Positions 1,869 through 57,641 of a stretch of 59,024 nt of DNA are shown here, piece by piece (the first letter of the stretch is position 1; the number at the start of each line of letters is the position of its first letter). The position numbers and the translations under genes were made by a program. Origin of the DNA: an uncultured virus (IMG/VR IMGVR_UViG_3300047357_001465) (Duplodnaviria > Heunggongvirae > Uroviricota > Caudoviricetes); IMG/VR virus record IMGVR_UViG_3300047357_001465. One strand, given 5' to 3'. The notes under the pieces are model-generated. The model made no database searches. It was not told the DNA's origin and was given only the letters and a program-made list of their open reading frames with translations.

Positions 1869-2585
1869 TTAGTTGGGTGCCGACCCGAAGAACAGGTAGC
1901 CTTTGACTTTCCCAACCTTAACTTGATTGCGAACACCTTTTACAGTGTATGTAGGCAACTTCGACGATTCCTGATAAGAGATCGACCCAAATTCTTGTAC
2001 TTTTTTGATATTATACTCTTTCCCTGGCACAGTGTTTCGGCTGTTGGGGTTAGAGAGGTAGACACTGAGAGCCTCCGTCGCTTCCTTCAACGTGGGGTAC
2101 TTTTCGCCGTTAGGGAAAGTGTAGTAAAAAGAACCTTTTGACTTTGTGCGAGTTAGATTCCTCTTACCTGCTTCAGCAGTTTTATTAATCGAGTTAATCT
2201 TGACCTCGACGGTCGTACCTTGCCTCTTTCGCCCGCCCCTCATCTTCGCAAGTATGAGATCTGTGGCTTCGCCTCTATCTCTTGCTTTTACTGTGACTTC
2301 AAACTCCTTTGAAGCCACAACCTTCTCTTCGCCGTAGGCAATTGCCCCTGCGTAATCCCATTTGCCATATTTATACGGCGGTCGGCTCATCGCTTCATTA
2401 GCCATGTTGTGAGCTTGTCTTTGTGTGACGACTTCTTTGGTATGCATTACGAAGCCATCTTTTAGGCCGATGTGACCTCCATAGGGACTATTGCCATAGT
2501 AACTTTTTGCGTCCCTTACTAGCTCCTTGAAGACCACACTCGCGTTTGACCCTCGACCCTCATCTACGAAATCTGTTGATCCCAT
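1869..2585 (-). CDS. hypothetical basic phage protein
   Basis: Start MGSTDF at 2585 after AGGAG; YYGNSPYGGHIG and C-terminal YLFFG motifs. Confidence 0.6.
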   Translation of the reverse strand: MGSTDFVDEGRGSNASVVFKELVRDAKSYYGNSPYGGHIGLKDGFVMHTKEVVTQRQAHNMANEAMSRPPYKYGKWDYAGAIAYGEEKVVASKEFEVTVKARDRGEATDLILAKMRGGRKRQGTTVEVKINSINKTAEAGKRNLTRTKSKGSFYYTFPNGEKYPTLKEATEALSVYLSNPNSRNTVPGKEYNIKKVQEFGSISYQESSKLPTYTVKGVRNQVKVGKVKGYLFFGSAPN

Positions 2586-2652
2586 GTTCTCCTCTTTTCT
2601 GGTATTGATTTTATAGGTATTACCTATTATCAAAAAACTACAAGGGGACGAG

Positions 2653-4254
2653 TTAAATAAGGGAGACTTGACCTTTGAACTTGTTGTTTTCAGAGGCGTA
2701 AATAGCACAGCTCTTAGGGTCTACCTGTTCCCTCAAGTTAGCGGGGGAGGTTCGACCCTTGCGGATTGTAGTTGCTTGTCTTCTTAGTGCCTCTTCTGAC
2801 CTCAGGGGCAAGCTGTCCATTGTATTTGGAGTTGCCCATATAGAGTCCTCTATATCTACGCCTCTCTCCTCAGCTTCAGCTTGTACTTGAAGCGGAGGTC
2901 TGAAGGTCTCTTTGCCTTGCTCTATTAGGCTCTTTTGTCTCTTAAGGTGGGCTTCTAAAGTCACCCCATTTTGCAGGGCTCGCGGAGTTGCCCATATAGA
3001 GTCCCCTATATCGACACCTCTCTCTTCAGCTTCGGCTTGTACTTGAAGAGTAGGTGCAAAGGTCTCCTTGCCCTGCTCTAAGCGACTTCTCATTCTTGAT
3101 ATGTAGTGCCGTAGGTTCTCACCCCTCTGTGAAGCTGGGGGAGTTGACCAATTCTGCCCACAGGTCGGTGAATGCTCTTCTTGCAGTATCTGGGACAACT
3201 CCATTTCCAAGCATTCTGAGCTCGTCCGTTCTATTGTCAAAGGACTCGTACAGCTTGGCTGCACCCATCCTATCGGAAGCCCCATCAACGTCTCTACCCA
3301 TCTCGGATTCAACTTCATTACGGCTGGATGTGAACCCTTCGCTTTTCTTCGAACCGTCTTCGTCAGAGTTATCTCTTTGTGATGTATTTCCTGCGTTGTT
3401 GGAGTTGGCCAATTCTTTTCTTGCATTGTCGCTTGGATCTGCACCCCTAATGTCACCTGTTTGAGTACCCCGTTCTTCCGATAGGCTCTCCCCTCCCCTT
3501 TCCATGTTTCCCCCGCCTTCGTATATACTTCCTCCACCCCTACTTCTGTCGTAGCTGGGCTTCTCCATAGTGACTCTTGGAGGCTCCCATGAGTATTGCT
3601 CTCTTCCTCTTGAGGAGGGGTATACAGAGCCACTTGTGTCTCGGTTTCGTTCAATGAGCTCATTGACCCATTCCAAGCTTTCTCTTTCGGTACCTCTTTT
3701 AATACCAAGTATGAAGACTCGTTTCCTCCTATGTGGAGCACCGACTTCTCTCGCTGAGAATACCCCTGCCGTCGCCTCATAACCCACCCTTTCCAATTCT
3801 CGAAGCACATGGAGCAGAACCGATGCCCCTTTTGGGTCTGACCATCCTTCAGAGCTGAGTTTTGCGGAGAGGATTCCTTCGACATTTTCAAGGAAAACAA
3901 CGGAAGGTTGGCAAACTTTGACTCCTCTGAGGATGTGTGGGAAGAGGTGTCTAGGGTCGGAGTCTGCTTGTCTTCGTCCTGCGGCAGAAAAGGGCTGACA
4001 AGGGAAGCCTCCTGAGATGAGATCCACTCTTCCACGGAAGATTTCCCAATCGAGGGTTTTAAGATTCGTCCATACAGGTGCTGCCTCAATAAGCCCTTTT
4101 TCCATCTTCGAGACCAAGTTGCAGACTGCGAAGGCTTCGATCTCCACAAAAGTGACTGTTCTGATAGATCCGAGAGTTCTTTTGAGTCCAAGATCAATCC
4201 CTCCGTAGCCTGCACAGAGGGAGAGATGTTTAAGTTCTTTGGTATCACCCACAT
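2653..4254 (-). CDS. overlapping-frame partner (beta-like subunit) of the C5 methyltransferase; carries motif IX-like segment and W-x-T/S-P repeats
   Basis: 533-codon ORF overlapping the MTase; KLNPRWVETLMGLPIGW at 3265..3315; five W-x-(T/S)-P units. Confidence 0.65.
   Translation of the reverse strand: MWVIPKNLNISPSVQATEGLILDSKELSDLSEQSLLWRSKPSQSATWSRRWKKGLLRQHLYGRILKPSIGKSSVEEWISSQEASLVSPFLPQDEDKQTPTLDTSSHTSSEESKFANLPLFSLKMSKESSPQNSALKDGQTQKGHRFCSMCFENWKGWVMRRRQGYSQREKSVLHIGGNESSYLVLKEVPKEKAWNGSMSSLNETETQVALYTPPQEEESNTHGSLQESLWRSPATTEVGVEEVYTKAGETWKGEGRAYRKNGVLKQVTLGVQIQATMQEKNWPTPTTQEIHHKEITLTKTVRRKAKGSHPAVMKLNPRWVETLMGLPIGWVQPSCTSPLTIERTSSECLEMELSQILQEEHSPTCGQNWSTPPASQRGENLRHYISRMRSRLEQGKETFAPTLQVQAEAEERGVDIGDSIWATPRALQNGVTLEAHLKRQKSLIEQGKETFRPPLQVQAEAEERGVDIEDSIWATPNTMDSLPLRSEEALRRQATTIRKGRTSPANLREQVDPKSCAIYASENNKFKGQVSLI
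2828..3080. repeat. imperfect direct repeat (~97 bp, period 156 nt) encoding ..LQVQAEAEERGVDIxDSIWATP
   Basis: 2828..2924 vs 2984..3080 visibly near-identical. Confidence 0.85.
3119..4252 (-). CDS. DNA cytosine-5 methyltransferase, catalytic chain
   Basis: Motif I LCAGYGG, IV GGFPCQPFS, VI LENV, VIII HRRKRVF, X LGNGVVP; no motif IX in this frame. Confidence 0.92.
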   Translation of the reverse strand: MGDTKELKHLSLCAGYGGIDLGLKRTLGSIRTVTFVEIEAFAVCNLVSKMEKGLIEAAPVWTNLKTLDWEIFRGRVDLISGGFPCQPFSAAGRRQADSDPRHLFPHILRGVKVCQPSVVFLENVEGILSAKLSSEGWSDPKGASVLLHVLRELERVGYEATAGVFSAREVGAPHRRKRVFILGIKRGTERESLEWVNELIERNRDTSGSVYPSSRGREQYSWEPPRVTMEKPSYDRSRGGGSIYEGGGNMERGGESLSEERGTQTGDIRGADPSDNARKELANSNNAGNTSQRDNSDEDGSKKSEGFTSSRNEVESEMGRDVDGASDRMGAAKLYESFDNRTDELRMLGNGVVPDTARRAFTDLWAELVNSPSFTEG

Positions 4255-4381
4255 TGTTTCTCCAATGGCGATTAGTGTATTTCTTTATACCATCTCAAAA
4301 GAATTCCAACACGACCTCCAACGCCTCGAACCTAGGAGTGGCCTTTTTAATTATTTGGATTAGCTTTTTTTATGTCCCATG

Positions 4382-4636
4382 CTATCTTCCGATTGCTATC
4401 GTGCTGCCGTCCTCATCACGGATGATCCTCGCTCGGACTCTTCTTGTGAGTAGGTCATGCCTGCTGAGTACCATCCCTGTGAGGTCAGCCCCCTTAAGGT
4501 TCGATCCTTTGAGGTCTCTTTCCCCTGCCCTTATCTTCTCCAGAGGAGACTCAAACAGACCAAAGAGAGCTTCCTTCTCAAGGGAAGCTATTCTTAAATC
4601 AAGTTCTTGCAGGGTCTCTCTCGCTGTCTTTCTCAT
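4382..4636 (-). CDS. short, possibly truncated pentapeptide-repeat protein with RIAxLE leader
   Basis: MRKTARETLQELDLRIASLEKEA, then about 4 pentapeptides (DLKGSNLKGADLTG); GAGGAG RBS. Confidence 0.7.
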   Translation of the reverse strand: MRKTARETLQELDLRIASLEKEALFGLFESPLEKIRAGERDLKGSNLKGADLTGMVLSRHDLLTRRVRARIIRDEDGSTIAIGR

Positions 4637-4680: not shown

Positions 4681-5754
4681 CTAACGAGAAAGGAGGTGGG
4701 TGAGGTCGGGTGGGAGACTATTGGCTAGATGGTAGTTTTTGGTTAAGAGGAGCTGCTCTAGGGTCAGATTTCTAGCCCCTTTGAGGTTCGCACCCTCAAG
4801 GTCAGCTCCTGTGAGCTTCGCGTCTCTGAGGTCAGCCTTTGTGAGGTCAGCCCCACGAAGGTCAGCCCGTCTGAGGTATACCCCTCTGAGGTCAGCCCCT
4901 ATGAACTTTGCCTCTCTGAGATCAGCCTCTATGAGGTTAGCACCTTCGAGGTCTGTTCCTTCGAGGTAAGCCCCTGTGAGATCAGCCCCCCTGAGCTTCG
5001 CCTTTATGAGGTCAGCCCGCTGGAGGTTCGCCCTACTGAGGTCAGCTCCCGTGAGGTTCGCACCCTCAAGGTCAGCACCACTGAGGTTAGCACCACTGAG
5101 GTTAGCACCCTCAAGGTCTTTTTCCCCAGATCGGGCTAAAGTCTCCCAGCTTGAAAACATCCTTTTTACACGATCAATGACCCCCGCTTCCCTCTCAAGG
5201 GAAGCGACTCTTAACTCAAGTTCTTGTAGGGTCTCTCTCTGGAGCTGGTTGAGCATCTTAGATGCGTCACTCCCTCTCTTAACAGGATTTTTAGGCTTCC
5301 TCTTTCCTCCGACCCTTTCAACAGAAAGGGTCTTCCCTTTCCAATCATAAGTGATCACTATCTTTCTTTTTCGAGGACCTGGAGACCCGATGATCTCAAT
5401 GTAATCAAAACGCTGAGTAACCATCTTTATATCGAGAGTATTTATTTGAAGTTTTAAGCTACGCAAAGCGTCATCAATACGATCATCTAAATCAGCCCAA
5501 TTCTCGTCTACCTCGCTCCTATCGGCAATGAAGATTGCGATGTCTTCTGTTGTAGCGTGTTGCGGAAGACCAACCTTGCTCGCTCTTTTTACCTCTTTTC
5601 GGGTTCTCTCCTCTACCGTCTCACCCTTGTGGGAGAATTGGTCAGAAATAGACAGAGGTATCCCTCCTGCATTCTTGAGATGAGTTCCTGTCAGATCTGC
5701 ATCTCCAAGTTTCGCACCTTCAAGTGCTCTTTTTACGTCATTTGGATTAGCCAT
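4681..5754 (-). CDS. chimeric pentapeptide-repeat protein
   Basis: A(D/N)LxG repeats in C-terminal half; N-terminus shared with 5805..6542; internal RVASLE leader. Confidence 0.9.
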   Translation of the reverse strand: MANPNDVKRALEGAKLGDADLTGTHLKNAGGIPLSISDQFSHKGETVEERTRKEVKRASKVGLPQHATTEDIAIFIADRSEVDENWADLDDRIDDALRSLKLQINTLDIKMVTQRFDYIEIIGSPGPRKRKIVITYDWKGKTLSVERVGGKRKPKNPVKRGSDASKMLNQLQRETLQELELRVASLEREAGVIDRVKRMFSSWETLARSGEKDLEGANLSGANLSGADLEGANLTGADLSRANLQRADLIKAKLRGADLTGAYLEGTDLEGANLIEADLREAKFIGADLRGVYLRRADLRGADLTKADLRDAKLTGADLEGANLKGARNLTLEQLLLTKNYHLANSLPPDLTHLLSR

Positions 5755-6598
5755 GATTATGCTCCTTGTTACTTGTGTTCACAAAGAGAGGCTCGATAGA
5801 GAAACTATCGGTTGAGATCCTTCTTCAAGGCTTTGATCTCTCTTTGAAGCTCTCTATTCATCCGAGAAGCTACGCGGATCTGAGAAGCTTTGCGACCTCC
5901 CTTTTCCTCTTTCTCTCTGCGGGCTTTTTCTTCGACCGTCTCTCCCTTGTGGGGGAATTTATCAGAGATAGACAGAGGTATGCCTTTCGCATCTGATAGA
6001 CCCGCACCTGATAGATCCGCACCTCTGAGTTTAGCTTTTCTGAGATCCGCCTCAATGAGATCCGCACCTAGGAGCTTCGCACCTCTGAGATCCGCTCTTA
6101 CTAGCTTCGCACCTGTTAGATCCGCACCTGTGAGTTTAGCATCCTTAAGATTCGCATCTGTGAGATTCCCACCGCCAAGTTTCGCACCTGCGAGTTTAGC
6201 ATTCCAGAGATACGCATTTCTGAGATCCGCATTTGTGAGATCCGCACCCTCAAGATTCGCGTCCTCAAGATTCGCACCCTTGAGATCCGCATCTATGAGA
6301 ACCGCTCCTATAAGTTTCGCACCAAAAAGATTCGCTCCTGTTAGATCCGCACCTGAGAGCTTCGCTCCTATAAGTTTCGCACCAAAAAGATTCGCTCCTG
6401 TTAGATCCGCACCTGAGAGCTTCGCACCGTCAAGATCCACACCTTCAAGATTCGCTTCAGTTAGATCCGCATTTCTGAGATCCGCACCTGATAGATTCCT
6501 ATCACCCGCAAGTGCTCTTTTTACGTCATTTTTATTAGCCATAATTATGCTCCTTGTTACTTGTGTTCACAAAGAGAGGCTCGATAGAGAAACTATCG
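5721..6598. repeat. 90-bp direct repeat (5721..5810 and 6509..6598) spanning upstream motif, RBS and first codons of two pentapeptide genes
   Basis: 3 mismatches; 5756..5810 identical to 6544..6598. Confidence 0.95.
5805..6542 (-). CDS. pentapeptide-repeat protein with ASQIRVAS tail
   Basis: Over 30 A(D/K/N)Lxx repeats; GIPLSISDKFPHKGETVEE cap; tail RKASQIRVASRMNRELQREIKALKKDL. Confidence 0.92.
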   Translation of the reverse strand: MANKNDVKRALAGDRNLSGADLRNADLTEANLEGVDLDGAKLSGADLTGANLFGAKLIGAKLSGADLTGANLFGAKLIGAVLIDADLKGANLEDANLEGADLTNADLRNAYLWNAKLAGAKLGGGNLTDANLKDAKLTGADLTGAKLVRADLRGAKLLGADLIEADLRKAKLRGADLSGAGLSDAKGIPLSISDKFPHKGETVEEKARREKEEKGGRKASQIRVASRMNRELQREIKALKKDLNR

Positions 6599-38797: not shown

Positions 38798-41700
38798 TTA
38801 AGCACCTACAGTGACGCTAGAGATAAGAGACCAATTCGTCCCATTGTAGATGAAAGTAGCTGATGAGTAATCGTTGCTGAGAGTAATATTGCTACCTGTC
38901 GCGAGAGCGAGGCCGTCCGCAGTGCCTGAAGTTCCATCGTCACTTAATATAAGGTTACCTCCACCACTCTTTTGGATCACCAAGATCGACCCTGTCTCTC
39001 CGCCTGTGATCGTTGAGATGGTATTGTTCGCACCGTCAGGGGTGACCTTATGGTACGACTTCGTGACAGCAAAAGTAATGTCTCCGTTACCAAGAGATAT
39101 TGTCGAGGTATCTAGGACAGCTTGCCCGCCTACAGCCAAATCACTTGAAGTGATCACTCTTTGACCTGCATTAATTGTAAGGGCAGTGGATGCCGAGTTA
39201 CTGCTCGACCCAGACCCGCTCGGAGATGCTGTCTTAAATACAATTGACCCGCCGTCAGCAGAACCCGTACTCAAGCCTCCTGATAAGGTAAGATCTGCAC
39301 CTGTAAGATCCGCCCCTGATGCTTTACCGCCTCTTACCATAGAGGTGTCAATAGGAGCCAGCTCAGAATCTGTTACGGTAATGTTCAGGTCTGTACCTAG
39401 AGAGAGATCTGTACTGATACCGTGAAATACTTTGTAGACTCCATCTTTTGCGTCTGCATCGGTTTCTTCTGGTTGGTAGATCATGCCTGCATATCGAGCG
39501 GCGGCGAGATTATTGCCGTATTTGGAGTACCAACCGAGATCTCTTGTGGCAGAGTCGTTATTTTGACCCAAGTAGATCATGCGGTCAGCTAGTTTGACTG
39601 CCGCACCTGTACCACTGAAGTTACCTGTAACGGTAACATTGCCTGAGATAAGAACACCTTGTGCCGATGAACCTATGAGGGTCGGGTTGTCTTCGATAGC
39701 TATTGTAACTGCACCGTCGGTGTTTGTAACGCCAATCTCATTAGCCGTTCCAAGAATGGAGAGTGCGTTATTTGTCTTCTGGTCAAAGCTGTATGTAGAT
39801 CCCCCTCCCGAGTCTGTAGTTAACGTGTAGAGCACGTCTTCTTCAGTAAGCAGAATCTCAGCGTTGCCGTCTCCCCTATCCGCTTTCCAAGTGTCTGCAG
39901 TCTCATCATAGTGCAATGTCGCATCTGTCGAAGAACCTCTGTTTACAGTGATACCTACGTTTTGTGAAGGAGCTACACCCCCTGCTAGATCACTATTTAA
40001 TGTGATTGTACTTAAGCCATCACTTGTGACATTTACGGAAGTTAATGTCGCCACGCCTGCGGTCAGCGTGCCTGTGGTCGTAAGGTTCTCATTGTCAAAG
40101 CTGATGGTGCCAGAAGCAGAGGTGATCAGCCCACTTGAAATGGAAATCGCACCGCCTGCGTCAGAGTCAGCAATGAGAGTATTTGCCACTTGGACATTAC
40201 CCGCGTTGTTGAACTGCCAAACATTCTCGGACTCATCCCAGAAGAAAACAGCGTCCGTGCCAGCCGAAGGTCTTGATACGGTGATCCCGAAGTCATGTGC
40301 GTCGAGTTCCGCTGTGTCATCCGAGTTGAATGTGATCGCACCCAAGCTAGGGGTGTCAATCTGGATAGCACCTGACGAAGTCTTTACATTACCAGAAGCA
40401 GTGACCGTAGATTCTGTGCTTACCTCACCTGATGTGGCAACGGTGAAGTTAGGGTCTGTTGTGATCGTTCCGCCGACTGTGACCTGAGTCTCAGAGTGGA
40501 GCTTGCCTCCCTTTACGACAAAAGACCCTTCTGAGTCATCCCAATCAAACTGCACGTTTGCTGTCGTATCGTTCACTTTGAAGATAGATACGTCGGCATC
40601 CGCACTGTCTGAGTTCAAGAGGATTGCAACACTATTGGTGGGAGACGCTTTAATATTTAAAGTGTCATCGAGTGTACTTTGACCCGTGACCGTGAGAGTT
40701 GTTCCCACGCTTAGGTCTGAACTCGTCGCGGTACTCTGATTGAGCGTCAAAGACTCGGCGGTAGTGTTTACAGTAACGTAAGCCTCCCCCGCATCACCTT
40801 GCTTAATAACGAAAGCATCGGTGTCATTGTCAGCGAGTTCAACCACAATTCCATCGCCGTCGTTGTCCGACAGCGTATTGATCGCTAAGCCTGTCAAGGT
40901 CGTTACACCTGTGACATTAAGAGTAGAAGCGAGACTCAAGGCACCTGCCGTTGTTAAAGTCGCGGTTGTAGTTCCCGCTGAAGTTGTATCGCCTACGGTT
41001 AAGGCGTTTGCTCCTGCTTTGCCTTGAAGGTGGAGGCCAGAAACAGAGTTAATGTTAAACTCGTCATTGTCCTCATCCCATTCAATCAAGGCATTAGTCT
41101 CAGTGCCTCTTTCAACTGTTATCAGCTTAGCGTCGCTCTCTTCGCCATTTCCTGTAAGGTCTGAGTTGAAGACGATACCGTTAGTGTTCGACTCTACGTT
41201 CACCTCCCCCTGTAGGGTAGTTAGACCACTAAAGGCAGTAGGTTGAGCTAAAGTGATTAGTTCAGATCCCTCGGTGGTGTTGAAGGTCATGTATGAGTCC
41301 GCGTCACCTCCAGCACCGAGATCTTTAATTTCAAGAGCGTTGGCGATGTTGTTCACCAAGTTGATCTTAAAGCTCCCCGTCCCTGTAGAACTTGCTCTCA
41401 AGTCATCGGTTTTAAATTGACCCGTTACGGTGGTGATGCTGTTCGTAGTGTCTACGTTTACAACGTCAGTGCCGTTTGCTTTCTCTACTACTAGGGCGGC
41501 GGTGTTATCTGCTTTTACGTTGACTGTATTAAGTATCGAAGTGACACCTGTATTACTTACGCTAAAGACATCAGCACCAACATTGATTCCTGCATCGGGT
41601 TCGAACACCGCTGTTGTAACAGTGACCTTTGGTGTGGTGGTGTCAATGTTAAAGATCTCACCGTTTGCATCTGTCTCCACCTTCAAAGCATTGGCGGAGG

Positions 41701-44700
41701 TCTTGGTTACGAGAACTTCACCTGTTGTTGAAAGGTTATAATTCGCCCCGTCAACAGTGAATCCGTTAGTGTCAATGGCGATACCACCATTTGCGTTCAC
41801 TACCCCCGCTGAAGTCACGGCATTGGTTGTCGTCAACGTACCTATCTTCAACGCACCCCAAGTAGTTGGTTCAGTGAAGTCCGTCGCGGTACTTGCCGTT
41901 TGAGTGAGACCCATCTTAAAGATAGAGTCGTCTTCATCGAAGAAGAACACCGCATCGTCTTCATCGCTCCCCCTCTCCATGAAGATACCGATGTCTCTGG
42001 TGTTATTAGCCCCAGATCCCGCTCCTTTGTTAAGACGGATCATTGAATCCACTACTTCAAGATCCGTCGAGTTCACTGTGGTGAGAGTTCCGTTCACCGT
42101 GAGGTTGGTGCAAGTTACAGAACCTGTTGTAGTGAGATTCTCATTTGCGAAGTCAATCGTACCTGTAGCAGAAGTGACCTCGCCGTTATTAAAGGTGAAA
42201 TCTGCGATCTGAGTTCCTTCTGCGGTAGCCGTGATCGTAGAGGTGACAGCTAGAGTCCCCCCTACAGAGGTATTCCCACTCGCAGAGGCGACACTGAAGT
42301 TCCCATTAACGTCGAAGTTGCCTACGGAGTGTAGGGCGTTCGAGACTGACCACTCATCCTCAGACTCATCCCATTGGATGTAGGAGTTGGTTGCCGTGCC
42401 TCTCTCCACTTCAATCTTAGCGTCTCTCTCAGTTCCGACTGCGGTAGCATCTGAGTTGAGAAGTACTAAAGCAGATTGATTGTTCGCATCTCCTGCGAGG
42501 TCAGAGGACAAGATGGAAAGTACCCCATTTAGAGAAGTCGCCCCCGAAACATCAAAAGATCCCGACACTGTCGTTGCACCCGTAACATCAAGAGGTCGGT
42601 TTACTTCAACGAGGTCATTCGTACCATCCACAAAAAGAGCTTCTGAAGAGAGAGGTGTCTCAACTCTAAAGTCTGTGGCATTTCCGTTTTCGTTGACCAC
42701 GATGTTCCCACCGTTTAGCCCGATAGCCCCGCTGGTGAAGTTCGCAGTCCCTGCAAAAATCACATCTCTACTGAACGTGATCAGCTCTAAGCCGTCTGTT
42801 GTGTCTACCTTGATATAACTGTTTAGACCTTCTTTAACTTCAAAAGATCCCGCAACATTATCATCCATCGAAACAACAATGGTAGAGCTGTCAGAAGAGA
42901 TCGTATCAAGGGAGATATCACCCACATTAGTGATATCTCCCTCCGCGACGCTGAGAGAAGCAACGGTAACAGAACCTGTTGTAGTGAGATTCTCATTTGC
43001 GAAGTCAATCGTACCTGTAGCAGAAGTAACCTCGCCGTTATTAAAGGTGAAATCTGCGATCTGAGTTCCCTCTGCGGTAGCCGTGATCGTAGAGGTGACA
43101 GTGAGTGTGCCTCCGATCTGAGTATTACCTGACGTGTCCGCTACAGAGAAGTTATCAGCAGTGATTCCCCCATTCGCGGTAAGAAGACCATCGACCGTCA
43201 CGGCATCCTCTGCTTGAAGAGTTCCGCTGATGGTTGTATTACCTGACGTATCCGCTACAGTGAAATTATCGGCAGAGATCCCCCCGCTCGCAGTAAGAAG
43301 ACCGTCAACAGTAAGAGTGCCTCCGACCTGAGTATTACCTGACGTATCCGCTACAGAGAAGTTATCAGCAGTGATCCCTGCGTTTGCAGTAAGAAGGCCA
43401 TCGACCGTCACAGTCGCTGAAGCATTGACCGCATCTGAGAAGGTAGTCTCCTTACCGAATGTGATCAGCTCTGAACCGTCTGTTGTGTCTGCCTTGATAT
43501 AACTGTTTAGACCTTCTTTAACTTCAAAAGATCCCGCAACATTGTCATCCATCGAAACAACAATGGTAGAGCTGTCAGAAGAGATCGTGTCGAGAGAGAT
43601 GTCACCTACATTAGTGATATTCCCGTCAGAGACGTTGAGAGAAGCAACGGTAACAGAACCTGTAGTAGTGAGACTTTCATTGCTGAAGTCAATCGTACCT
43701 GTTGCAGAAGTGATCTCGCCGTTATTAAAGGTGAAATCTGCAATCCGAGATCCCTCTGCGGTAGCCGTGACTGTAGAGGTGACAGTAAGAGTGCCTCCGA
43801 TTTGGGTATTACCCGTAGCATCCGCTACAGAGAAGTTATCAGCAGTGATCCCTGCATTCGCGGTAAGAAGGCCGTCTACGGTCAGGGCGGAGTCGTAAGA
43901 TACGTCACCCGTAAAGGTAGCTGTGTCAAAGGCCACCTCCTTACCGAATGTGATCAGCTCTGAACCGTCTGTCGTATCTACCTTGATATAACTGTTTAGA
44001 CCTTCTTTAACTTCAAAAGATCCCGCAACATTGTCATCCATCGAAACAACAACAGTAGAGCTGTCAGAAGAGATCGTATCAAGGGAGATGTCACCTACAT
44101 TAGTGATATTCCCGTCAGAGACGTTGAGTGAGGTCAGAGTCCCAGCTCCCCCAGACAGGGTTCCTATTGTGGTGAGGTTCTCATTACTGAAGTCAATCGT
44201 ACCTGTAGCAGAAGTGACCTCGCCGTTATTAAAGGTGAAATCTGCGATCTGAGTTCCTTCTGCGGTAGCTGTGATCGCACCTACGACAGTAGTCGCACCA
44301 GATGCCGCCGTGATCGTAAAGTTTCCGTTGACATCGAAGTCCCCCGTTACGTTCATGGTGCCAGAAGTGCTCACATTGCCTGATGTGTCTGCTACGGTGA
44401 ACACCCCGCCATCGGCGGTGATCCCACCATTTGCGGTAAGGAGACCAGATAGTGTTGCCGTATTGATCGAGGCATTACCTGTAGAGGTAACATCTGTGGA
44501 GCTCAAGTTTCCTGTTGTAGAAACATTCTCATTACCAAAGTCAATGCCCGCTCCATTTGTGGATGCCTCTATGGTAGTACCCGAGAAAGTAATACCTGCG
44601 AGCCTATGTCCGTCACTGTCGGAGGTGACTACACCCGCATTACTGACACTGAAGTTTGAAGCCCCGTCAACAGCACCTTGGGTGATTGCCCCAACTACGT

Positions 44701-46384
44701 TTATGCCCTCTGACACTGAGAAGTAAGTAGAGCTTTCATCCCAAGATAGGGTTGCGTAGGAGACGCCTCTATCTACTCTCAGGAGAGTCTCGTCTTGTGC
44801 GTCTGCTTCATCGTGCCTGAAGGTAATTCCGTTCGTGGAGCTATCCGAAATGTAGAGGTTTCGGGTAACAACAAGGTCTTGACCTACAGTGAAGTCTGTA
44901 GAAGCACTAGCATTATTAGAGAGAGCCCAAGTGCTAGTGCCATTGTCCCATTGGATTGTGGCATAAGAGGGTGCGTTACTGAGAGCAACTGCAATAGATG
45001 CGTTTGCTGGGGTGTTATCCGTGGTGGCATCAGAGTTCAATATAATCTGATGAGTCGCTCCCTTCTCGACAGAGAGGGTTGAGTTGGAGCTTACGGTAGC
45101 TCCACTCGTTAACGTAACCTCGCCACCGACAGTCAACGTCCCTGTGGTAGAGAGGTTATTGTCGTTAAAAGAGAGGTCATTGTTAGCGTTTGTTGTCTGG
45201 ATTTGACCATCCGTGAGCTCTATGTCTCCTACTGTTGAAGCAGAGGCTAAAGTAGAGATCCCTGTAACATCTAGCGTCCCTGCAATTGAGGTGTCACCTG
45301 TTGTGTCGGCGACGGTGAACTTATTAGTGTCTACTGCAAGGCCCGCGTTCGCGTTAAGTAAGCTTGAGAATGTGGCGATACCTGTGACTGCCAAAGTTGT
45401 GGCCACCTGAACCGTACCTGTAGTCTCTAAACTTTTTAGTTTGAGGTCAGAGTAATCGGTAGGGTTGAAATTTGTATCTCCGCCCGTGGCTCCGTTGGGA
45501 GCTTGTGCGAGTTTAAAAACCTGATCGGTGTTGTCGAAGATAAATAGTTGATCTCCTTCAGCACCAGGGTTGGTGATAAATAGGCCAATGTCGTTTGCTA
45601 CGTCCCCATTGTTGAGGATCATAACGGGGTCTTGGACAGTAACTTGATCTGTATTGACAGTAGTTGTAGTTCCGTTAACTGTCAGGTTGCCTGTCACAGT
45701 AAGATCGTTGCTTACCGTGAGGTCGTTTGAAACCGTCACGTCATTCGGGAGTCCGATAGTTACAATCGAACCGTTGGCATTATCCCCGTCAGCGGTTACG
45801 GCAACTGTAGTCTCAGAGTTTGTTGCGGTGAAAGTGAGGGTCTGTCCGAGAGGCAGATTATCGGTGTTAGCTCCATCTGAGATTGTGATCGTAGAGTTAG
45901 CTAACTTCGAGTTGGTTACTTGACCGTCTTCTATGTTTGGGGTCTGGATTGCATCTGTGGTGAGGGAAGCGACACCTGTTGCAGAGATTGTCAGGTCTCC
46001 AGAGATAGCTACGTTCTCCCACCTTGAATCATTGTCGTTATCGTAGATAAGGACATGGGCTTCCCCAACACCTGCAATATTTACATCTGTGAGGTCTCCA
46101 ACTTGGATGCCACCACCTGAGTCAACATACGCCTTAGTCGCTACGTCTTGTGCATTCGTAGGGTCTGCCACATCTACGATCTTTTGACCATTGAAATCAA
46201 CATCGGCAGAAGGGGCTATGTTAGAGAGAGTAGGAAGGGCTGTCTCAGTCCCTCCTGCGGTAGCCCCGTCGTGAACCCGAATTGTGTTCTTCGTGGTGTC
46301 TACGGTGATCTCACCGACAGCACCTGTGAAAGCATTATTCTCAGCAGTTGTTCCCCTGCGTAATTGTACTCTGCGGACTGACAT
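38798..46384 (-). CDS. very long tail fibre/adhesin-like protein (2528 aa) with Mtd-N-like head
   Basis: VQLRRGTTAENNAFTGAVGEITVDT..HDG; PTNAQDVATKAYVD; G/T/D-rich beta repeats (GNLTVNGTTTTVN). Confidence 0.8.
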   Translation of the reverse strand: MSVRRVQLRRGTTAENNAFTGAVGEITVDTTKNTIRVHDGATAGGTETALPTLSNIAPSADVDFNGQKIVDVADPTNAQDVATKAYVDSGGGIQVGDLTDVNIAGVGEAHVLIYDNDNDSRWENVAISGDLTISATGVASLTTDAIQTPNIEDGQVTNSKLANSTITISDGANTDNLPLGQTLTFTATNSETTVAVTADGDNANGSIVTIGLPNDVTVSNDLTVSNDLTVTGNLTVNGTTTTVNTDQVTVQDPVMILNNGDVANDIGLFITNPGAEGDQLFIFDNTDQVFKLAQAPNGATGGDTNFNPTDYSDLKLKSLETTGTVQVATTLAVTGIATFSSLLNANAGLAVDTNKFTVADTTGDTSIAGTLDVTGISTLASASTVGDIELTDGQIQTTNANNDLSFNDNNLSTTGTLTVGGEVTLTSGATVSSNSTLSVEKGATHQIILNSDATTDNTPANASIAVALSNAPSYATIQWDNGTSTWALSNNASASTDFTVGQDLVVTRNLYISDSSTNGITFRHDEADAQDETLLRVDRGVSYATLSWDESSTYFSVSEGINVVGAITQGAVDGASNFSVSNAGVVTSDSDGHRLAGITFSGTTIEASTNGAGIDFGNENVSTTGNLSSTDVTSTGNASINTATLSGLLTANGGITADGGVFTVADTSGNVSTSGTMNVTGDFDVNGNFTITAASGATTVVGAITATAEGTQIADFTFNNGEVTSATGTIDFSNENLTTIGTLSGGAGTLTSLNVSDGNITNVGDISLDTISSDSSTVVVSMDDNVAGSFEVKEGLNSYIKVDTTDGSELITFGKEVAFDTATFTGDVSYDSALTVDGLLTANAGITADNFSVADATGNTQIGGTLTVTSTVTATAEGSRIADFTFNNGEITSATGTIDFSNESLTTTGSVTVASLNVSDGNITNVGDISLDTISSDSSTIVVSMDDNVAGSFEVKEGLNSYIKADTTDGSELITFGKETTFSDAVNASATVTVDGLLTANAGITADNFSVADTSGNTQVGGTLTVDGLLTASGGISADNFTVADTSGNTTISGTLQAEDAVTVDGLLTANGGITADNFSVADTSGNTQIGGTLTVTSTITATAEGTQIADFTFNNGEVTSATGTIDFANENLTTTGSVTVASLSVAEGDITNVGDISLDTISSDSSTIVVSMDDNVAGSFEVKEGLNSYIKVDTTDGLELITFSRDVIFAGTANFTSGAIGLNGGNIVVNENGNATDFRVETPLSSEALFVDGTNDLVEVNRPLDVTGATTVSGSFDVSGATSLNGVLSILSSDLAGDANNQSALVLLNSDATAVGTERDAKIEVERGTATNSYIQWDESEDEWSVSNALHSVGNFDVNGNFSVASASGNTSVGGTLAVTSTITATAEGTQIADFTFNNGEVTSATGTIDFANENLTTTGSVTCTNLTVNGTLTTVNSTDLEVVDSMIRLNKGAGSGANNTRDIGIFMERGSDEDDAVFFFDEDDSIFKMGLTQTASTATDFTEPTTWGALKIGTLTTTNAVTSAGVVNANGGIAIDTNGFTVDGANYNLSTTGEVLVTKTSANALKVETDANGEIFNIDTTTPKVTVTTAVFEPDAGINVGADVFSVSNTGVTSILNTVNVKADNTAALVVEKANGTDVVNVDTTNSITTVTGQFKTDDLRASSTGTGSFKINLVNNIANALEIKDLGAGGDADSYMTFNTTEGSELITLAQPTAFSGLTTLQGEVNVESNTNGIVFNSDLTGNGEESDAKLITVERGTETNALIEWDEDNDEFNINSVSGLHLQGKAGANALTVGDTTSAGTTTATLTTAGALSLASTLNVTGVTTLTGLAINTLSDNDGDGIVVELADNDTDAFVIKQGDAGEAYVTVNTTAESLTLNQSTATSSDLSVGTTLTVTGQSTLDDTLNIKASPTNSVAILLNSDSADADVSIFKVNDTTANVQFDWDDSEGSFVVKGGKLHSETQVTVGGTITTDPNFTVATSGEVSTESTVTASGNVKTSSGAIQIDTPSLGAITFNSDDTAELDAHDFGITVSRPSAGTDAVFFWDESENVWQFNNAGNVQVANTLIADSDAGGAISISSGLITSASGTISFDNENLTTTGTLTAGVATLTSVNVTSDGLSTITLNSDLAGGVAPSQNVGITVNRGSSTDATLHYDETADTWKADRGDGNAEILLTEEDVLYTLTTDSGGGSTYSFDQKTNNALSILGTANEIGVTNTDGAVTIAIEDNPTLIGSSAQGVLISGNVTVTGNFSGTGAAVKLADRMIYLGQNNDSATRDLGWYSKYGNNLAAARYAGMIYQPEETDADAKDGVYKVFHGISTDLSLGTDLNITVTDSELAPIDTSMVRGGKASGADLTGADLTLSGGLSTGSADGGSIVFKTASPSGSGSSSNSASTALTINAGQRVITSSDLAVGGQAVLDTSTISLGNGDITFAVTKSYHKVTPDGANNTISTITGGETGSILVIQKSGGGNLILSDDGTSGTADGLALATGSNITLSNDYSSATFIYNGTNWSLISSVTVGA

Positions 46385-46434: not shown

Positions 46435-49400
46435 TTAAGAGACTAAAACTCCATGATCCACTTCTGCATATATAACAGGGTCATTGAACCCAGCCCCATT
46501 CCAATCGGTGCTGAAATCTGTGTTCTGCACAAAGGCGTCGCCCACTGAACCATAGTCAACGGTCTCGATTACCTGACCTAGGACAATCAAGTCCGCGACC
46601 GCATTAACATTACTTTGGGTAGGGGAACTCAATAGAATAAGCTCATTCGGGCTAGTTCCTACATTATATTCCGTCGATGTCCCAAGAACCGTTGGGACAT
46701 ACTTGTTCAGCCCATTATCTGTTGTGTACCTTAGAACCTGCTTGTTCGTGTCCGCTTGAGAGTTGATGTCAATCAAGTTCGAGGTGTTGATCCCAATCTC
46801 AAGATCTATCTGATTGTTCACGTCATCGTGTGTGAAAGAGATGCCTTGATCTTCAACAAAAGCGTGTGTGCCAGCTTCAAGAGCCGACCCGACAGCGTCT
46901 CTTGCTGATTCAGCAAGGATTGTAGAGACAAACTCACCCGCGTTGGCGTTCCAAACTAAAACTTCGTCGCCTACAAAGTCTCCCGTAGTGACATTGACAT
47001 CTGAGAGGGTGTTGACCGACCCTAGAGATGTGAGGTTAGAACCATCTAACGCACCGAGCTTGCCTTGAACGTCTGTGAGAATTGCCTTGCCTGCATCTGC
47101 ACCGCCTCCGTTTACGGTGGTGTCCGCGAGCGACGCATCTTTCAGACCTAATGTCGCTCTCTGGTCGGCTACCGTAGCATCATCAAGTAGGTCGAGACCC
47201 ACAGAGGTGACTGTGTACGAGTCAATAGAGCCTTGAGCATCGGTATATATGATCTTGTCTGCCCCAAGAGGCTCTAATGCAGATATGTCGTCTAACAGAC
47301 CACTCTGAGCTTGTATGTCCGTCCCGATCTCAAGGTCTAAAGAGGCTCTTACTTGAGCTGGGGTCTCTGCTACAAAGTTACCCCCATCACCTACAATGAA
47401 GTTTCCGTCTGCAACCGCAAGACCAGAAATGTCTTGAAGGTTCGAGCTGAGGGCTAAATCCACTCTACTGTTGGCGTCATCATAGGATGCGGTTAGACCC
47501 GTAGAGTGGTTAGCGTGGTCGAACATCGACCCCGTGATGTCTTGAGCATCCTCTGTGGTATCCGTTAGGTCAGATAATGTTAAAGATCTGATCCAAGATG
47601 CAGTTACAATTTCATTTCCATTTGCCGCAGCAGCGGGTGCCGTTATAGAACCTGAACCTGTTACTGTAAGATTCCCGCTTATTGAGGTGTTCCCAGAAGC
47701 ACCTGCAACTGTGAATAGGTTGTTTCCGACAGTGAGATCGCCTATAGTGGAAATGTTCTCAGCTCCGAAGCTAACTCCATTACCCCCAGAGGTGATAGAA
47801 GTCCCACTCAGGACAAGGTTTCCAAGTGTAGCTCCCGCTGAAGACTCGATCTCTTTACCAAAGACAACCTTCTCTGAGCCGTCTGTAGTAACAAATGTGA
47901 GGTAGTCGTTGCCAGCTTCCGTAAAGATGAGAGCTTCTGCTTGGTTGTCTGTGAGTGAGATCTCCGTCACAGACAGAGTCCCATTAATGGTGAGGTTTCC
48001 ACCTTGCAGAAGAAGAATGTTGCCTCCATCGGACAAGTCCGCAGTAGAGATCACTCTATTCTCGAAGTTAGCTCCATCGTGGACAATGAAGTGCTTGTTT
48101 GCAGACCCCGCAACAGTTACGTCGGAGAGGTCGTTTAAGCCTGAATTAGAGGCTAAGAAGTCTCCCGTGTCATTAGAGACAGCAGTTCCAAATCCAAGAG
48201 TTGCTCTAGCATTAGCTTGATCTATACCCAGAGAGGTTCTAGCTTGAGCGGGTGTCTCTGACACAAATCCGTTTCCGTCACCTACAATGAAGTTCCCCTC
48301 TGTATTGGCGAGTTCGGCAATATCTTGCAGATTATCGGACAGCGTGAGATCAACTCTGTTGTCGGCATCATCATAGGACGCGGTTAGGCCCGTAGAGTGG
48401 TTAGCGTGGTCGAACATCGCACCTGCGATGTCTTGAGCATCCTCTGTGGTATCCGTTAGGTCAGATAATGTTAAAGATCTGATCCAAGATGCAGTTACAA
48501 TTTCATTTCCATTTGCAGCGGCAGCGGGTGCCGTTATAGAACCCGTACCTGTTACAACTAGGTCACCTCCCACAGTGACACCTAATGTTGAAGAGATATC
48601 ACCCTCAACATTTAGGTCACCTGTCTGAACAGGGGCTTTGCTGAGTCCTGCAACAGAGGAGAAGTCAGTGGATGTGCCGTCCACAGCCCCGCTATGTGTC
48701 GCAAATACGAACGCATCTTCTCCCTCATCCCAGAGAACTACAGCATCATCTAGGTCGCCCCTGTTTAGGAAGAGGCCGATGTCGAGGGTGTTATTGTTTC
48801 CTCCGATGCCATTATTAAGCTCGATGACTCGGTCTTTAACAGAGAGGTTGTCCGTATCTATTGTGGTTAGCGTACCTGTAACCGTAAGATCAACGCAGGT
48901 GACAGATCCTGTAGTGGTTATGTTCTCAGCTCCGAAGCTAACTCCATTACCTCCAGAGGAGATGCTAGTCCCACTCAGGACAAGGTTTCCAAGTGTAGCT
49001 CCCGCTGAAGACTCGATCTCTTTACCAAAGACAACCTTCTCACCTGCATCTGTAGTAACAAATGTGAGGTAGTCGTTGCCAGCTTCCGTAAAGACAAGAG
49101 CTTCTGCTTGATTATCTGTAAGTGAGATCTCCGTCACAGACAACGAGCCGTTGAGGGTGAGGTCACCGCCATTTAGGAGAGGGATCTCACTGCCGTCTAA
49201 AAGATCAGCGGTAGAGATCAATCTATTCTCGAAGTTAGCCCCATCGTGGACAATGAAGTGTTTATTTGCAGGTACGGCTATTGAAATATCACTCAGGTCA
49301 TCTAAGCCTGAATTAGAGGATAGGAAGTCTCCCGTGTCATTAGTAACAGCAGTCCCAAAGCCAAGAGTTGCTCTCGCATTAGCTTGATCTATACCCAGAG

Positions 49401-52400
49401 AGGTTCTAGCTTGTGTCGAGGTCTTGAGTACAATGTCGTTCCCGTCACCCGCGAGGAAGTTGTCGGCAGTAGGTGCGGCAATCGCGGAGATCTCGGTTAG
49501 TCTGTCATTTACAGGCTGAAAGTTCCCTCCTACATTGATGAACTGTATTTCATTCTGTACGAACGCCGTAGTAGCTATTTGGGTACTGTCATCACCCTGT
49601 ACTGCTGTAGGTGATTCGGGTGTACCTGTTAGGGTAGGGCTGTTTACTCTAGCAATAGTGGCATCTACCGAGAAGTCTATCTTGTCATTAACATCGTCGT
49701 AAGTCACAGTGATATCTGTTTGAGTACCGCTGTTGATCAAGCTACCTACGGCATCTTGAGACTCTTCAATAATAGTGTTGTCTCCTACTGTCAACGCCCC
49801 TTGTGCATTGAAGATTAAGACCTTACCTTGTGCCTTGTTTGTAGTGTCAACGTCAGACAGATCGTTGATAGAAGACGATGTCTTTATCAGGCTCGTTCCG
49901 TCAGATAACTGATTTGAAGAGAGTTGAATATTCTCAAAGAGACTGTTCCCCGTGTAGACCAAAACTTGGTTTACCAAAGGAGTTCCTGCTTGAGGGTCAT
50001 TAGTTATCGTGACATCATTCAGGTCATCTAAACCTGAATTAGAGGCTAGGAAGTCTCCCGTGTCATTAGAGACAGCAGTTCCAAATCCAAGAGTTGCTCT
50101 AGCATTGACTTGATCTATACCCAGAGAGGTTCTAGCTTGTGTGGGAGTCTTAAGAACGAGATCTGCCCCGTCACCCGCGAGGAAGTTGTCGGCAGTAGGC
50201 TGTGCGATAGCGGAGATCTCGGTTAGTCTGTCATTCTGTTCCTGTACGTCAACCCCAACCTCAAGATTCAGGTGGGCGTGAGGGTCGTTCGATGCGATTA
50301 AGTCTCTACCTTCCTGTGTGACAGCAGAGACTGCAAATGTATTATTGCCTGTTGTGTATAGTATGTTTCCAGCTACAGGGTTAAGGCTTGCGATAGAGAC
50401 TAAAGAGTCCTGTAAAGTGGCGGTGACTTGCCCGTCATTTACTCCACCATCATCTGTATAGGCGAAGGTAATGCCTGTAGAGTGGTTAGCGAGGGTAAAC
50501 TGAGCCCCTACGATGTCTTGAACCGCCTCCGTAGTGTTAGCGAGATCAGATAGCTCAAGTCCTCTTACCCAAGCCGCAGTGACAATGTGGTTATCTGCAA
50601 CAGCTTGTGCGGGAGCGAGGATTGTACCTGTACTGTTTACCGTAAGAGATCCTGTAGTAGAGATATTACCTTGTGAATCAAGGTCGCCCACTCTCAAGTC
50701 TGCGTCTGCGATACCAGCCACTGCATCGAAGTCAATGGTGTTGATATCGACTGCACCTGAGTGTGTAGCCAGCCTAAAGATGTCAAGACCCTCATCCCAT
50801 AGGAAAACTGCGTCATCGAGATTGCCTCGGGTCAGCAGGAGTCCTAAGTCATTTGCGTTATTTCCTACAAACCCGTTATTGAGTTCGATGATACTATTCG
50901 CGACAGCGAGATTGTTTTGGTTATTGATGTTCTGAACGCCGTTTACGGTAAGGTTCTGAACCGTGATGTCACCACCTGTTGTCAGATCTGTGTTTCCAAG
51001 ATCAATCGTACCTGTGGAATCTTCAATAGATCCCGACCCGATAGTCATCGTGCCGTCAATGACGGTTGTTTTTAACAACCTGATTTCTTCGCTGTTGTCT
51101 GTCGTGTCGATTTCGACATAAGACACATTGTTTGTAGACTCTTCGATCTTCAGGGCGATACCTTGATTGTCTGCGACATTCAAGCTGATTTGGTTGCCTC
51201 CAGAGGTGATTGAGTCTACTTCTATATCTGCCACGTTGGTGATGTTTTGATTGTTTGCAGATAGTCCTGAAGAGAGGGTTGTTGCTCCTGTAACAGTCAA
51301 TTCTCCCGCTACTGAGGTGTTACCTGAAGCACCTGCGACTGCAAAGAGGTTATTTCCTACCGTGAGATTACCTGTTGTGGTCAACGCCTCCGTTCCAAAA
51401 TCAACCCCTCCATTGTTTGAGGTAGTGATCGAATTGTCTTCGAGGAGTAGGTTTCCAATTGAAGAACCTGAGATACCTTCAAAGGTCTTCCCAAACACTA
51501 CCTTCTCATCGCCGTCTGTAGTAACAAACGTCAAGTATTGATTTCCTCCCTCAGATATAGATAGAGCGGAAGCCAAGTTGTCCGACATCAAGAGAGAGGC
51601 TGTGGCAAGAGAGGTAAGTGTAGTGACACCTGCGTCAAGCGTGCCTGTGGTGGATATGTTCACCGCATTAAAGGAGATATTGCCTCCTGCACTATTGACT
51701 GTCGCATCATTGCCGTTTGGGGTGATTGAAAGAGAATTTGCTCCCGTATTCGGATTGACGACATTAAGACCGCCTTCCATAGAAGAGAGTCCGTCTACAG
51801 AGAGTGATCCAGAGATCTCCGTGTTGCCTGTAAGACCTTCTACTAGGAAAAGGTTATTCACGTTAATCCCGCCGTTCGGCTTGAACGTGTTCGCGAGAAT
51901 AAGCTCGTCGCTACCGTCTAACAAGGGGACTTTCGACCCATTAGAGAGGTCGGCAGTAGAGATGGTTCTGTTAGAGAAGTCACCCTGTGCGTCGCTAACT
52001 AGCATCTGAATCGGAGCCACCCCAGCGATGCTGACATCAGCCAGATCCTCTAGCCCAGACCCTGAAGCTAGGAAGTCTGCTACTTCACTCGTAGAGGCAC
52101 TTCCAAGACCTAATGCATCTCTGGCGTTCTGGTTCGCGAGGACGACGAAGTTGTTACCGTCTCCTACAATAAAGTTTCCGTTGGCTCTGTTGAGCTGGGA
52201 GAGATCTTGGAGACTGCTTGCTAAGGAGGCGTCTACCCTGTTGTTGATGTCGTCATAGGTGAACGTGATACCCGTAGAGTGGTTCACATGATTAAACATT
52301 ACACCTGCGATGTCTTGAACGTCCTCAGTGGTGTCCGTTAGATCAGATAATGTTAAAGATCTGATCCAAGATGCAGTTACAATTTCATTTCCGTTTGCAG

Positions 52401-57549: not shown

Positions 57550-57641
57550 ATCGGAGCACAGGAGCTGAGAGAGTTAAGCAAATGCACGACTTTTATCCGT
57601 GTCTCTCAGCAGTACAACCCCGTATATGAGTCTAAGACTAT
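57550..57641. repeat. 92-bp hairpin-forming direct repeat, copy 1
   Basis: Identical to 58887..58978; stem GCTGAGAGA/TCTCTCAGC. Confidence 0.95.

Follow-up and report, generated by a model that had tools for sequence, protein, structure and literature searches.

The stretch of DNA examined here (the window) comprises 59,024 nucleotides (nt) from an uncultured virus, IMG/VR record IMGVR_UViG_3300047357_001465, and carries on its minus strand a C5-methyltransferase locus that is open in two reading frames. All coordinates are positions in the window. Frame A is a 377-amino-acid (aa) open reading frame (ORF) that occupies positions 3119-4252 and begins at the GTG at 4252. Frame B, which is +1 relative to A, is a 533-aa ORF that occupies positions 2653-4254 and begins at the ATG at 4254. 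The former corresponds to a proposed alpha chain, consisting of a large catalytic domain (motifs I-VIII), a linker and motif X, and the latter to a proposed beta chain. On inspection, the minus strand at the start of the locus reads ...ccattGGAGaaacaATGTGGgtg, which includes a Shine-Dalgarno (SD)-like GGAG (4260-4263), the spacer AAACA (4255-4259) and a double start, ATGTG (4250-4254), wherein the frame-B ATG (4254-4252) overlaps the frame-A GTG (4252-4250). The GGAG lies 5 nt ahead of the ATG and 7 nt ahead of the GTG.

Frame B is open across all 1134 nt of frame A, starting 2 nt earlier and ending 466 nt later. A first-pass annotation of this DNA had described the GGAG-AAACA-ATGTG string and a pair of 533- and 377-aa ORFs sharing about 1.1 kb, and both descriptions are accurate, with the string at 4263-4250. 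There are no +1-frame stops in the 378 codons of frame A, and 26 in its +2 frame, while the window's 44 longest ORFs (an uncurated list that includes frame B itself) contain 3.3-12.3 +1-frame stops per 100 codons, with a median of 5.95. Full +1 openness arose in none of 2000 codon permutations of frame A, in 2 of approximately 2000 synonymous resamplings with the gene's own codon usage (a fraction of 0.001) and in none of 2000 synonymous resamplings with the codon usage of the window. The openness of frame B exceeds chance. An assembly error as the cause of the double frame is ruled out, since the stretch is covered, free of insertions and deletions, by contigs from four other seawater metagenome runs and the arrangement is kept in dozens of independent loci. 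A scan of positions 2400-4500 for promoters and terminators gave counts no higher than those in shuffled sequences.

Frame A matches the Pfam family PF00145 with an E value of 1e-36 (residues 8-361; 127.5 bits versus a cut-off of 22), with profile positions 2-319 of 324 aligned as a single stretch, and TIGR00675 with 101.8 bits (cut-off 100.65). Its sequence matches to solved structures are restricted to the N-terminal half (residues 8-188 or 77-188). Throughout, the names I, IV, VI, VIII, IX and X denote sequences in the two frames that we take to be these motifs. The S-adenosylmethionine (AdoMet) loop of motif I, P-C-Q of motif IV, E-N-V of motif VI and G-N-x-V-x-P of motif X are all found in frame A. 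Motif IV, GGFPCQPFS (3986-4012), includes the catalytic Cys85, and its residues G81-S89 are invariant both in 16 and in 102 aligned relatives. The motif VIII region, PHRRKRVFILG, lies at 3704-3736, and motif X, RMLGNGVVP (residues 346-354; 3191-3217), is identified by alignment and by selection in the frame-A phase. Residues G15, Y16, G18, P84, C85, Q86, E122, N123, V124, G349, N350, G351, V352 and P354 are invariant in 102 frame-A relatives.

Alignments of 16 and of 102 sequences divide frame A into two conserved parts, namely motifs I-VIII and a C-terminal segment, GRDxDGxSDRLDYAxL...DNRTDELRLLGNGVVP. Residues 229-318 (3299-3568) show no conservation in these alignments and form a hypervariable, low-complexity stretch that is not alignable among relatives; it is predicted to be a disordered linker, and the same DNA encodes the recognition-type region in frame B. 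Directly ahead of the linker is the block YPSSRGREQYSWEPPRVT (residues 211-228; 3569-3622), of which P212, R215, G216, Q219, E223, P224 and R226 are kept in at least 90% of the 102 relatives. Motif IX and a folded recognition domain, which on the same chain would mark a single-chain enzyme, were not found together in frame A. The alignments and residue conservation bear out the earlier description of a catalytic frame that has motifs I, IV, VI, VIII and X but lacks IX. In one frame-A relative (P0005), the C-terminal part (EPKVGRNANGASGRLDYEKLYESGDSRTDELRLLGNGVVP...) occurs twice.

The product of frame B has no match to any methyltransferase family in Pfam and none in NCBIfam. It nevertheless includes a motif IX-like sequence, KLNPRWVETLMGLPIGW (residues 314-330; 3265-3315), recognized by its pattern and conservation. 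Residues L315-E321, L323-G325, G329 and W330 are invariant in 114 frame-B relatives, in agreement with the first-pass report of such a motif in the other frame, just ahead of motif X. That report was right that frame B supplies motif IX, but the contribution of this frame is not limited to the motif: the whole recognition-type region (residues 229-313; 3316-3570), composed of W-x-T/S-P modules (LWRSPATTE..., NWPTPTTQE...), is also in B. We propose that this region and motif IX together are the counterpart of the small domain in single-chain enzymes. Further upstream, a predicted helix, NWKGWVMRRRQGYSQREKSVL (residues 151-171; 3742-3804; predicted local distance difference test (pLDDT) values of 83-90), overprints frame A directly before motif VIII. 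In one frame-B-type protein (P0207), HNH and NUMOD-type domains (PF07463, PF13392) are inserted between two W-x-T-P modules, and the insert looks, from its sequence, like a homing endonuclease inside the recognition region.

Past the frame-A stop, frame B continues as a C-terminal extension (2653-3118) with more W-A-T-P modules, resembling those that precede motif IX in other loci, and with predicted helices of pLDDT 83-94. A strain variant in run X12 has 22 differences within the extension; 15 of them hit third codon positions of frame B and 17 do not alter its residues, which indicates that the extension codes in this frame. A tandem repeat (2828-3150; period 156 nt, 2.1 copies, 74% matches) spans the frame-A stop and corresponds to two 52-aa units of the extension, the duplicated beta unit being EQGKETFxPxLQVQAEAEERGVDIxDSIWATP...

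Coding frame along the locus

Mismatches were counted by frame-A codon position (A1, A2, A3, corresponding to B3, B1, B2) in 16 independent pairs of sequences with 74-93% DNA identity, each sequence being used once. Over motifs I-VIII the rates at A1/A2/A3 are.166/.093/.287, the pattern of ordinary coding in A. They become.304/.197/.176 in the variable region, indicating coding in B, and.288/.077/.056 over motif IX, indicating strong coding in B, before returning to.157/.080/.365 between motifs IX and X, where coding is again in A. Resolved in 30-nt bins, the phase changes sharply from A to B 0-30 nt past motif VIII and reverts approximately 60 nt past the start of motif IX. Within the B-selected stretch, the block YPSSRGREQYSWEPPRVT is an A-selected island, with 5, 10 and 21 mismatches at A1, A2 and A3 in five pairs.

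Because substitutions take the B phase in the variable region and across motif IX, frame B appears to be where this motif and the target-recognition part are read, and the middle of frame A appears to be an unconstrained linker. Similarly, the frame-A string E-P-x-V-G-R-x-x-x-G, which occurs at the end of many annotated phage methylases, is a shadow of the frame-B motif IX, because selection there operates in frame B on the shared DNA.

A separate assay addressed whether the choice of synonymous codons in frame A keeps particular residues in frame B; it assumes that sequences are independent, and its effect may be overstated. The codon for the invariant frame-A Leu153 ends in G, which gives Trp in B within the predicted 151-171 helix, in 49 of 55 sequences. 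Among 24 sequences that are at most 65% identical, three of 63 testable frame-A codons are significant versus 0.32 expected, the strongest being this Trp opposite Leu153, which is kept in 21 of the 24 (p about 0.001). Within the window's clade, 13 diverged members give 11 significant codons among 110 testable ones versus 0.55 expected, including those that keep Trp opposite Val1, Val36 and Val76 of frame A. These patterns provide evidence that beta is constrained from about residue 150 onwards, and a hint that constraint extends to earlier residues.

Spread of the double frame

Of 8000 scored candidates, 5665 are relatives of frame A with E values of at most 0.001. A locus (L002) with 70% protein identity has the same ORF pair, with an ATG at 2990 that opens 512 aa and a GTG at 2992 that opens 406 aa. 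We assembled a set of 86 sequences (85 loci plus the window, some of them duplicates); in 72 of them a single frame holds both motif IV and motif X. Between these motifs the +1 frame is interrupted by no more than one stop in 68 of the 72, and in 61 it matches the motif IX pattern (LNPxFVExLMGxP-like) 21-83 codons ahead of motif X. The double frame recurs in relatives ranging from 70% down to approximately 27% identity to the window's frame A. Whether stops break the second frame in close homologs was one of the checks proposed at the outset, and the +1 frame is open throughout this range. The two-frame design that had been noticed therefore stands, but not as the peculiarity of a single gene, as it is carried by a very large family.

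Searches with the frame-B product returned 574 database matches. Of the best 120, 118 have no Pfam family, and where their sources name them they are called ‘hypothetical protein’. A profile built from 114 frame-B relatives matched 27,924 cluster representatives among 1.84 billion at E values up to 0.001, and 12,867 at values up to 1e-10. Relatives are present in cultured phages of Paenibacillus, Lacticaseibacillus, Bordetella and Acinetobacter, and others are found on genome and metagenome-assembled genome (MAG) contigs labelled with many bacterial phyla. PHROG 1008, annotated as ‘DNA methyltransferase’, has matches in frame B and also in frame A at its motif X end.

No normal single-frame relative that carries the frame-B recognition region is present among the best 120 of the 574 matches. 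The only one with PF00145 (P0186) is frame-A-like through motif IV and then frame-B-like, which reflects either a real +1 change or an error in its contig. On a Lentisphaeraceae MAG contig (L093), the frame number of A holds the recognition region together with motifs IX and X, but these come after stops and a (GA)n tract. The tract, at 2178-2215 of that contig and read as ERERERERE, lies at the junction, and frames A and B both stop ahead of it. One extra GA unit would join frame B to the recognition region, motif IX and motif X, and the tract could represent phase variation or a repeat-length error. A literature search, which had most subscription journals and REBASE outside its reach, found no description of this design as a family-wide feature.

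One chain or two

To compare single-chain and two-chain expression, stops were counted in 49 non-redundant loci, with the expectation for the variable region derived from resampling that leaves the frame-B protein unchanged. No stop interrupts frame A across the variable region in 43 loci, and all 67 frame-A stops seen there, compared with 320 expected, fall in the other six. Breakage is bimodal, as the broken loci carry 2-19 stops and have other layouts. Between motifs IV and VIII, frame B has one stop compared with 60 expected and is open in 48 of the 49 loci. Openness outside the selected parts would be needless for a single frameshifted chain and favors two chains. Because both frames are open beyond their selected parts and no slippery site is conserved, we favor the production of two polypeptides, with alpha probably extending across the whole of frame A, including a junk linker, and beta across frame B.

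Structure predictions are consistent with this division. In an AlphaFold model of alpha alone, residues 1-230 and 341-377 are confident, and residues 251-340 fall below pLDDT 50 (31-48). Foldseek matches the model to M.HaeIII, M.HhaI and DNMT1 over approximately 180-210 columns. The confident parts of beta are residues 151-171 (a helix), 241-280 (pLDDT 81-96), 381-393 and 431-470; a fold search (VIA) of its mostly low-confidence model against 48,161 solved chains gave a best Z of 3.4 and nothing usable, and is uninformative on fold. When alpha (377 aa) was modeled with beta residues 215-345, the interaction prediction score from aligned errors (ipSAE) was 0.89 in three of three runs, and the best of three controls reached 0.00. 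The mark applied to this score is reached by 116 of 157 solved complexes and by 2 of 215 mismatched pairs. The runs share at least 67% of contacts, with a partner pLDDT of at least 61.

In these models, the alpha segments that residues 316-326 of the beta motif IX lie against are motif X (344-355), motif VIII (172-176), the block (224-227) and motif I (16-21). The closest predicted contacts of KLNPRWVETLMGLPIGW are with frame-A residues 344-355, 224-227 and 172, and the predicted interface further involves alpha residues 207-230 and beta residues 229-235 and 269-277. A prediction of this kind had been suggested as a check on the two-frame idea, and it gave a passing score, which may nonetheless reflect likeness to solved single-chain C5 methyltransferases instead of binding between these particular chains.

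Among 79 non-duplicate loci examined for the start of beta, 44 have their first frame-B ATG 74-84 codons ahead of motif IV, and ATGTG is present at the frame-B start in 34 of the 44. In another six of the 44, a frame-A ATG lies 5 nt after or 4 nt before the frame-B ATG. Moreover, most of the best 150 database matches to the frame-B profile begin at profile position 1-2 with protein residue 1. We infer that both chains probably start at ATGTG. The recurrence of this string lends support to the initial suggestion that one SD sequence may serve both starts, and the partner chain is much longer, as had also been pointed out.

The anatomy of the locus, its conservation, the frame selected in each region and the openness of both frames beyond their selected parts are direct observations. 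We estimate a probability of roughly two in three that one C5 methyltransferase is made as two polypeptides from the same DNA in two frames. Alpha, from the GTG at 4252, would provide the AdoMet-binding and catalytic domain (motifs I-VIII), the block YPSSRGREQYSWEPPRVT, a disordered linker of about 90 residues and motif X. Beta, most likely from the ATG at 4254 behind the same GGAG, would consist of an N-terminal part overprinted on the catalytic domain, the W-x-T-P recognition region, motif IX and an extension with more modules. Both frames would be translated and the chains would assemble, with the beta motif IX packing on motif X, motif VIII and the block of alpha to rebuild a normal two-domain enzyme for whose activity both would be needed. 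The openness of the frames, the phase of substitutions and the complex prediction all support the two-chain, two-frame enzyme envisaged in the first-pass annotation.

Several observations weigh against this proposal. The substitution pattern over motifs I-VIII is dominated by frame A; beta may carry most of its first 150 residues as a passenger, and its real start could be an internal one. PF00145 is absent from the frame-B products of the window and of L012, L053, L072 and L084 in Pfam searches, the frame-B profile finds no match among solved-structure sequences at E values up to 1, and the putative motif IX of frame B is assigned from pattern and conservation only. Beta modeled alone is poorly folded overall, with a mean pLDDT of 58.5. 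Only 24 of 44 loci have an SD-like 4-mer 4-14 nt upstream of their frame-B ATG. In six of 49 loci, stops interrupt frame A within the variable region, and a contiguous alpha is thus not universal. In three of these loci (L040, L046, L047), motif X is in a separate frame-A ORF beginning near M-A-D-T, the -1 shadow of the frame-B W-P-T-P. L048 has this arrangement too, and the four loci, on viral contigs, may carry a three-piece form of the enzyme. Finally, none of the runs on record as RNA contains the stretch.

An unlikely variant holds that two chains are made but that beta begins mainly at an internal frame-B Met (for example M124, M149, M159 or M198) instead of at ATG 4254, with the upstream open frame merely tolerated or used for minor isoforms. 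In more distant relatives, including the Paenibacillus phages, frame B opens only 10-56 codons ahead of motif IV, and in L054-L084 it has early stops with a first ATG only 3-49 codons ahead of this motif. The annotated Paenibacillus phage protein gp55 begins inside the gene for gp54, and internal Met codons are used in M.EcoHK31I (see below for both). The deep test with 24 sequences also finds frame-B constraint mainly from about residue 150. However, members of the window's clade are all open in B from ATGTG, the string is kept in most loci with an early ATG, and the clade test retains Trp residues as far upstream as frame-A codon 1, subject to the possible overstatement mentioned above.

We assign very little weight to a single chain produced by two programmed frameshifts, +1 past motif VIII and the block and -1 past motif IX, which would restore the usual order of motifs I-VIII, recognition domain, IX and X. 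The selected frames do run exactly A, B, A, and in L040, L046 and L047 the broken frame A means that motifs I-VIII and X are not on one unshifted chain. Programmed frameshifting would be marked by a conserved slippery site and by unused parts that are free to decay, but neither is seen. A -1 slippery heptamer (X_XXY_YYZ) follows motif IX in only three of 49 loci, with none conserved, most loci have no frame-A stop or obvious +1 signal past motif VIII, and both frames stay open outside the parts that such a chain would use. Furthermore, the A-selected block precedes the frame-B modules in the window but follows one in L005 and L006, where a single chain would need four shifts, and frame B stays under selection for 466 nt beyond the alpha stop.

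Scarcely credible is the view that frame A alone is the whole enzyme and that codon usage or descent keeps frame B open as a shadow without translation: gene callers and most annotations call only frame A a methyltransferase, and Pfam aligns it to nearly the full PF00145, but its middle evolves in the B phase, is not alignable and is predicted to be disordered, the motif IX-like residues are invariant in 114 frame-B sequences, shuffles reject chance openness, and most strain differences past the frame-A stop are synonymous in B.

Beyond the two-chain enzyme itself, we tentatively consider that the whole 1.1 kb may be dual-coding, with a functional N-terminal part of beta, a chain ratio fixed by ATGTG and recognition modules freed to change. 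The Trp residues kept by synonymous choice and the confidently predicted helix at 151-171 are the reasons for suspecting that the first ~215 residues of beta, overprinted on motifs I-VIII, work in the enzyme. If so, ATGTG would set the ratio of both chains from one ribosome-binding site, and a recognition domain opposite a junk frame would be free to acquire, discard and rearrange W-x-T-P modules, including behind motif IX. Phages could then quickly change or multiply their methylation specificity, and tens of thousands of ‘hypothetical proteins’ would be hidden specificity subunits of phage methyltransferases.

The two-frame design appears to be the rule and not the exception in a very large family borne mostly by phages. 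When annotating, pipelines call one of the frames and either label the other ‘hypothetical’ or drop it, and would thereby miss the subunit that determines specificity. An annotated gene expressed alone may work only because the insert also encodes beta, and target-site predictions made from frame A would read the junk linker. The overlap would be among the longest conserved same-strand gene overlaps in phages for which a role can be assigned to each frame, and the locus would offer a clean natural setting in which to study the sharing of one sequence by two proteins.

The window encodes a terminase, a portal protein, both ribonucleotide reductase subunits, PhoH and a thymidylate-kinase-like enzyme, and is DNA of a marine phage. 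As no restriction enzyme gene was recognized beside the methyltransferase, the enzyme is most likely an orphan, self-protecting (anti-restriction) methylase of this phage. A 402-aa ORF on the plus strand (55748-56956) matches phrog_1211, ‘2-aminooxy adenylosuccinate synthetase’ (PurZ-like), with an E value of 6e-86, and the phage genome may have adenine replaced by 2-aminoadenine (a Z genome) alongside its C5 methyltransferase. Three pentapeptide-type repeat proteins (ADLxGANLxG...) are encoded on the minus strand at 4681-5754, 5805-6542 and 57638-58741, two of them directly upstream of the methyltransferase, and all three match one common set of PHROGs of unknown function (e.g. phrog_7713 and phrog_923). 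Two adjacent giant ORFs on the minus strand (38798-46384 and 46435-54345) encode 2528 and 2636 aa, and a match to a tail protein family is limited to the first 79 residues of the former.

Comparison with known systems

The single-chain enzymes M.HhaI and M.HaeIII have the same order of motifs along the DNA, and their large-domain fold is matched by the alpha model. Their small domain is on the same chain, whereas the corresponding frame-A stretch of the window appears to be an unconstrained, disordered linker. The multispecific methyltransferases of Bacillus phages (SPR and phi3T type) are likewise single chains, with several tandem recognition modules in the variable region, an arrangement that the window's W-x-T-P modules may resemble. 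In M.AquI, two ORFs overlap. The overlap in the window is the whole alpha gene and not a short junction as in M.AquI. PHROG 1008 joins a frame-B-like part and motif X in a single profile, as in an M.AquI-type layout. According to passages of its description, the alpha chain of M.AquI has motifs I-VIII and its beta chain IX-X (PMC3404938). Three relatives of the window (L012, L053, L072), in which frame A stops past motif VIII and frame B holds IX as well as X, resemble this enzyme in being split in the variable region between VIII and IX. The window differs from the published layout in that motif X is back in frame A and alpha wraps around beta in gene order.

Phages of Paenibacillus larvae (Fernvirus) provide an annotated example of nesting. 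In Tadhana (NC_048691; L084), a +1 ORF for gp55 is nested within the 357-aa C5 methyltransferase gene for gp54, and both products are annotated as ‘DNA methyltransferase’. Like the window's frame B, gp55 has W-x-T-P modules, and it carries LNPDWVECLMGFPIGW. It begins 67 codons into gp54 and ends 164 nt ahead of the gp54 stop; the pair lacks a shared start, and a C-terminal extension is absent. In further records from this phage group only frame A is annotated, and a comparative paper on Paenibacillus phages names two methyltransferases, with nesting not discussed in the relevant passages (PMC6070908). The gp54/gp55 pair is a cultured system that carries the nested-frame design.

The closest precedent, as proposed in the first-pass annotation, is M.EcoHK31I, which has been described as working in two-chain form, its beta being read from the alpha gene in a different frame (PMC2836561). 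In the accounts cited here, two-chain C5 methyltransferases with a chain in another frame, such as M.EcoHK31I and M.AquI, are treated as exceptions, and M.EcoHK31I alpha has motifs I-VIII as well as X, with the recognition domain ascribed to it, while beta has motif IX (PMC2836561, PMC3404938). Like M.EcoHK31I (and M.EaeI, by the literature), the window has alpha with motifs I-VIII plus X, while motif IX is on the other-frame chain, a likeness of layout drawn from published descriptions. Internal Met codons served as starts for M.EcoHK31I beta, whose first 42 residues were dispensable (PMC2836561). Both chains of that enzyme are reported to be needed for activity (PMC2836561, PMC3404938), a need that would also apply in the window. 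The M.EcoHK31I beta chain is described as short and wholly inside alpha, whereas beta in the window starts earlier and ends later than alpha, and the recognition domain ascribed to alpha in M.EcoHK31I is B-selected in the window. The locus therefore has an EcoHK31I-like design with new features, namely a recognition region in beta, a shared ATGTG start and a beta frame that runs 466 nt past alpha.

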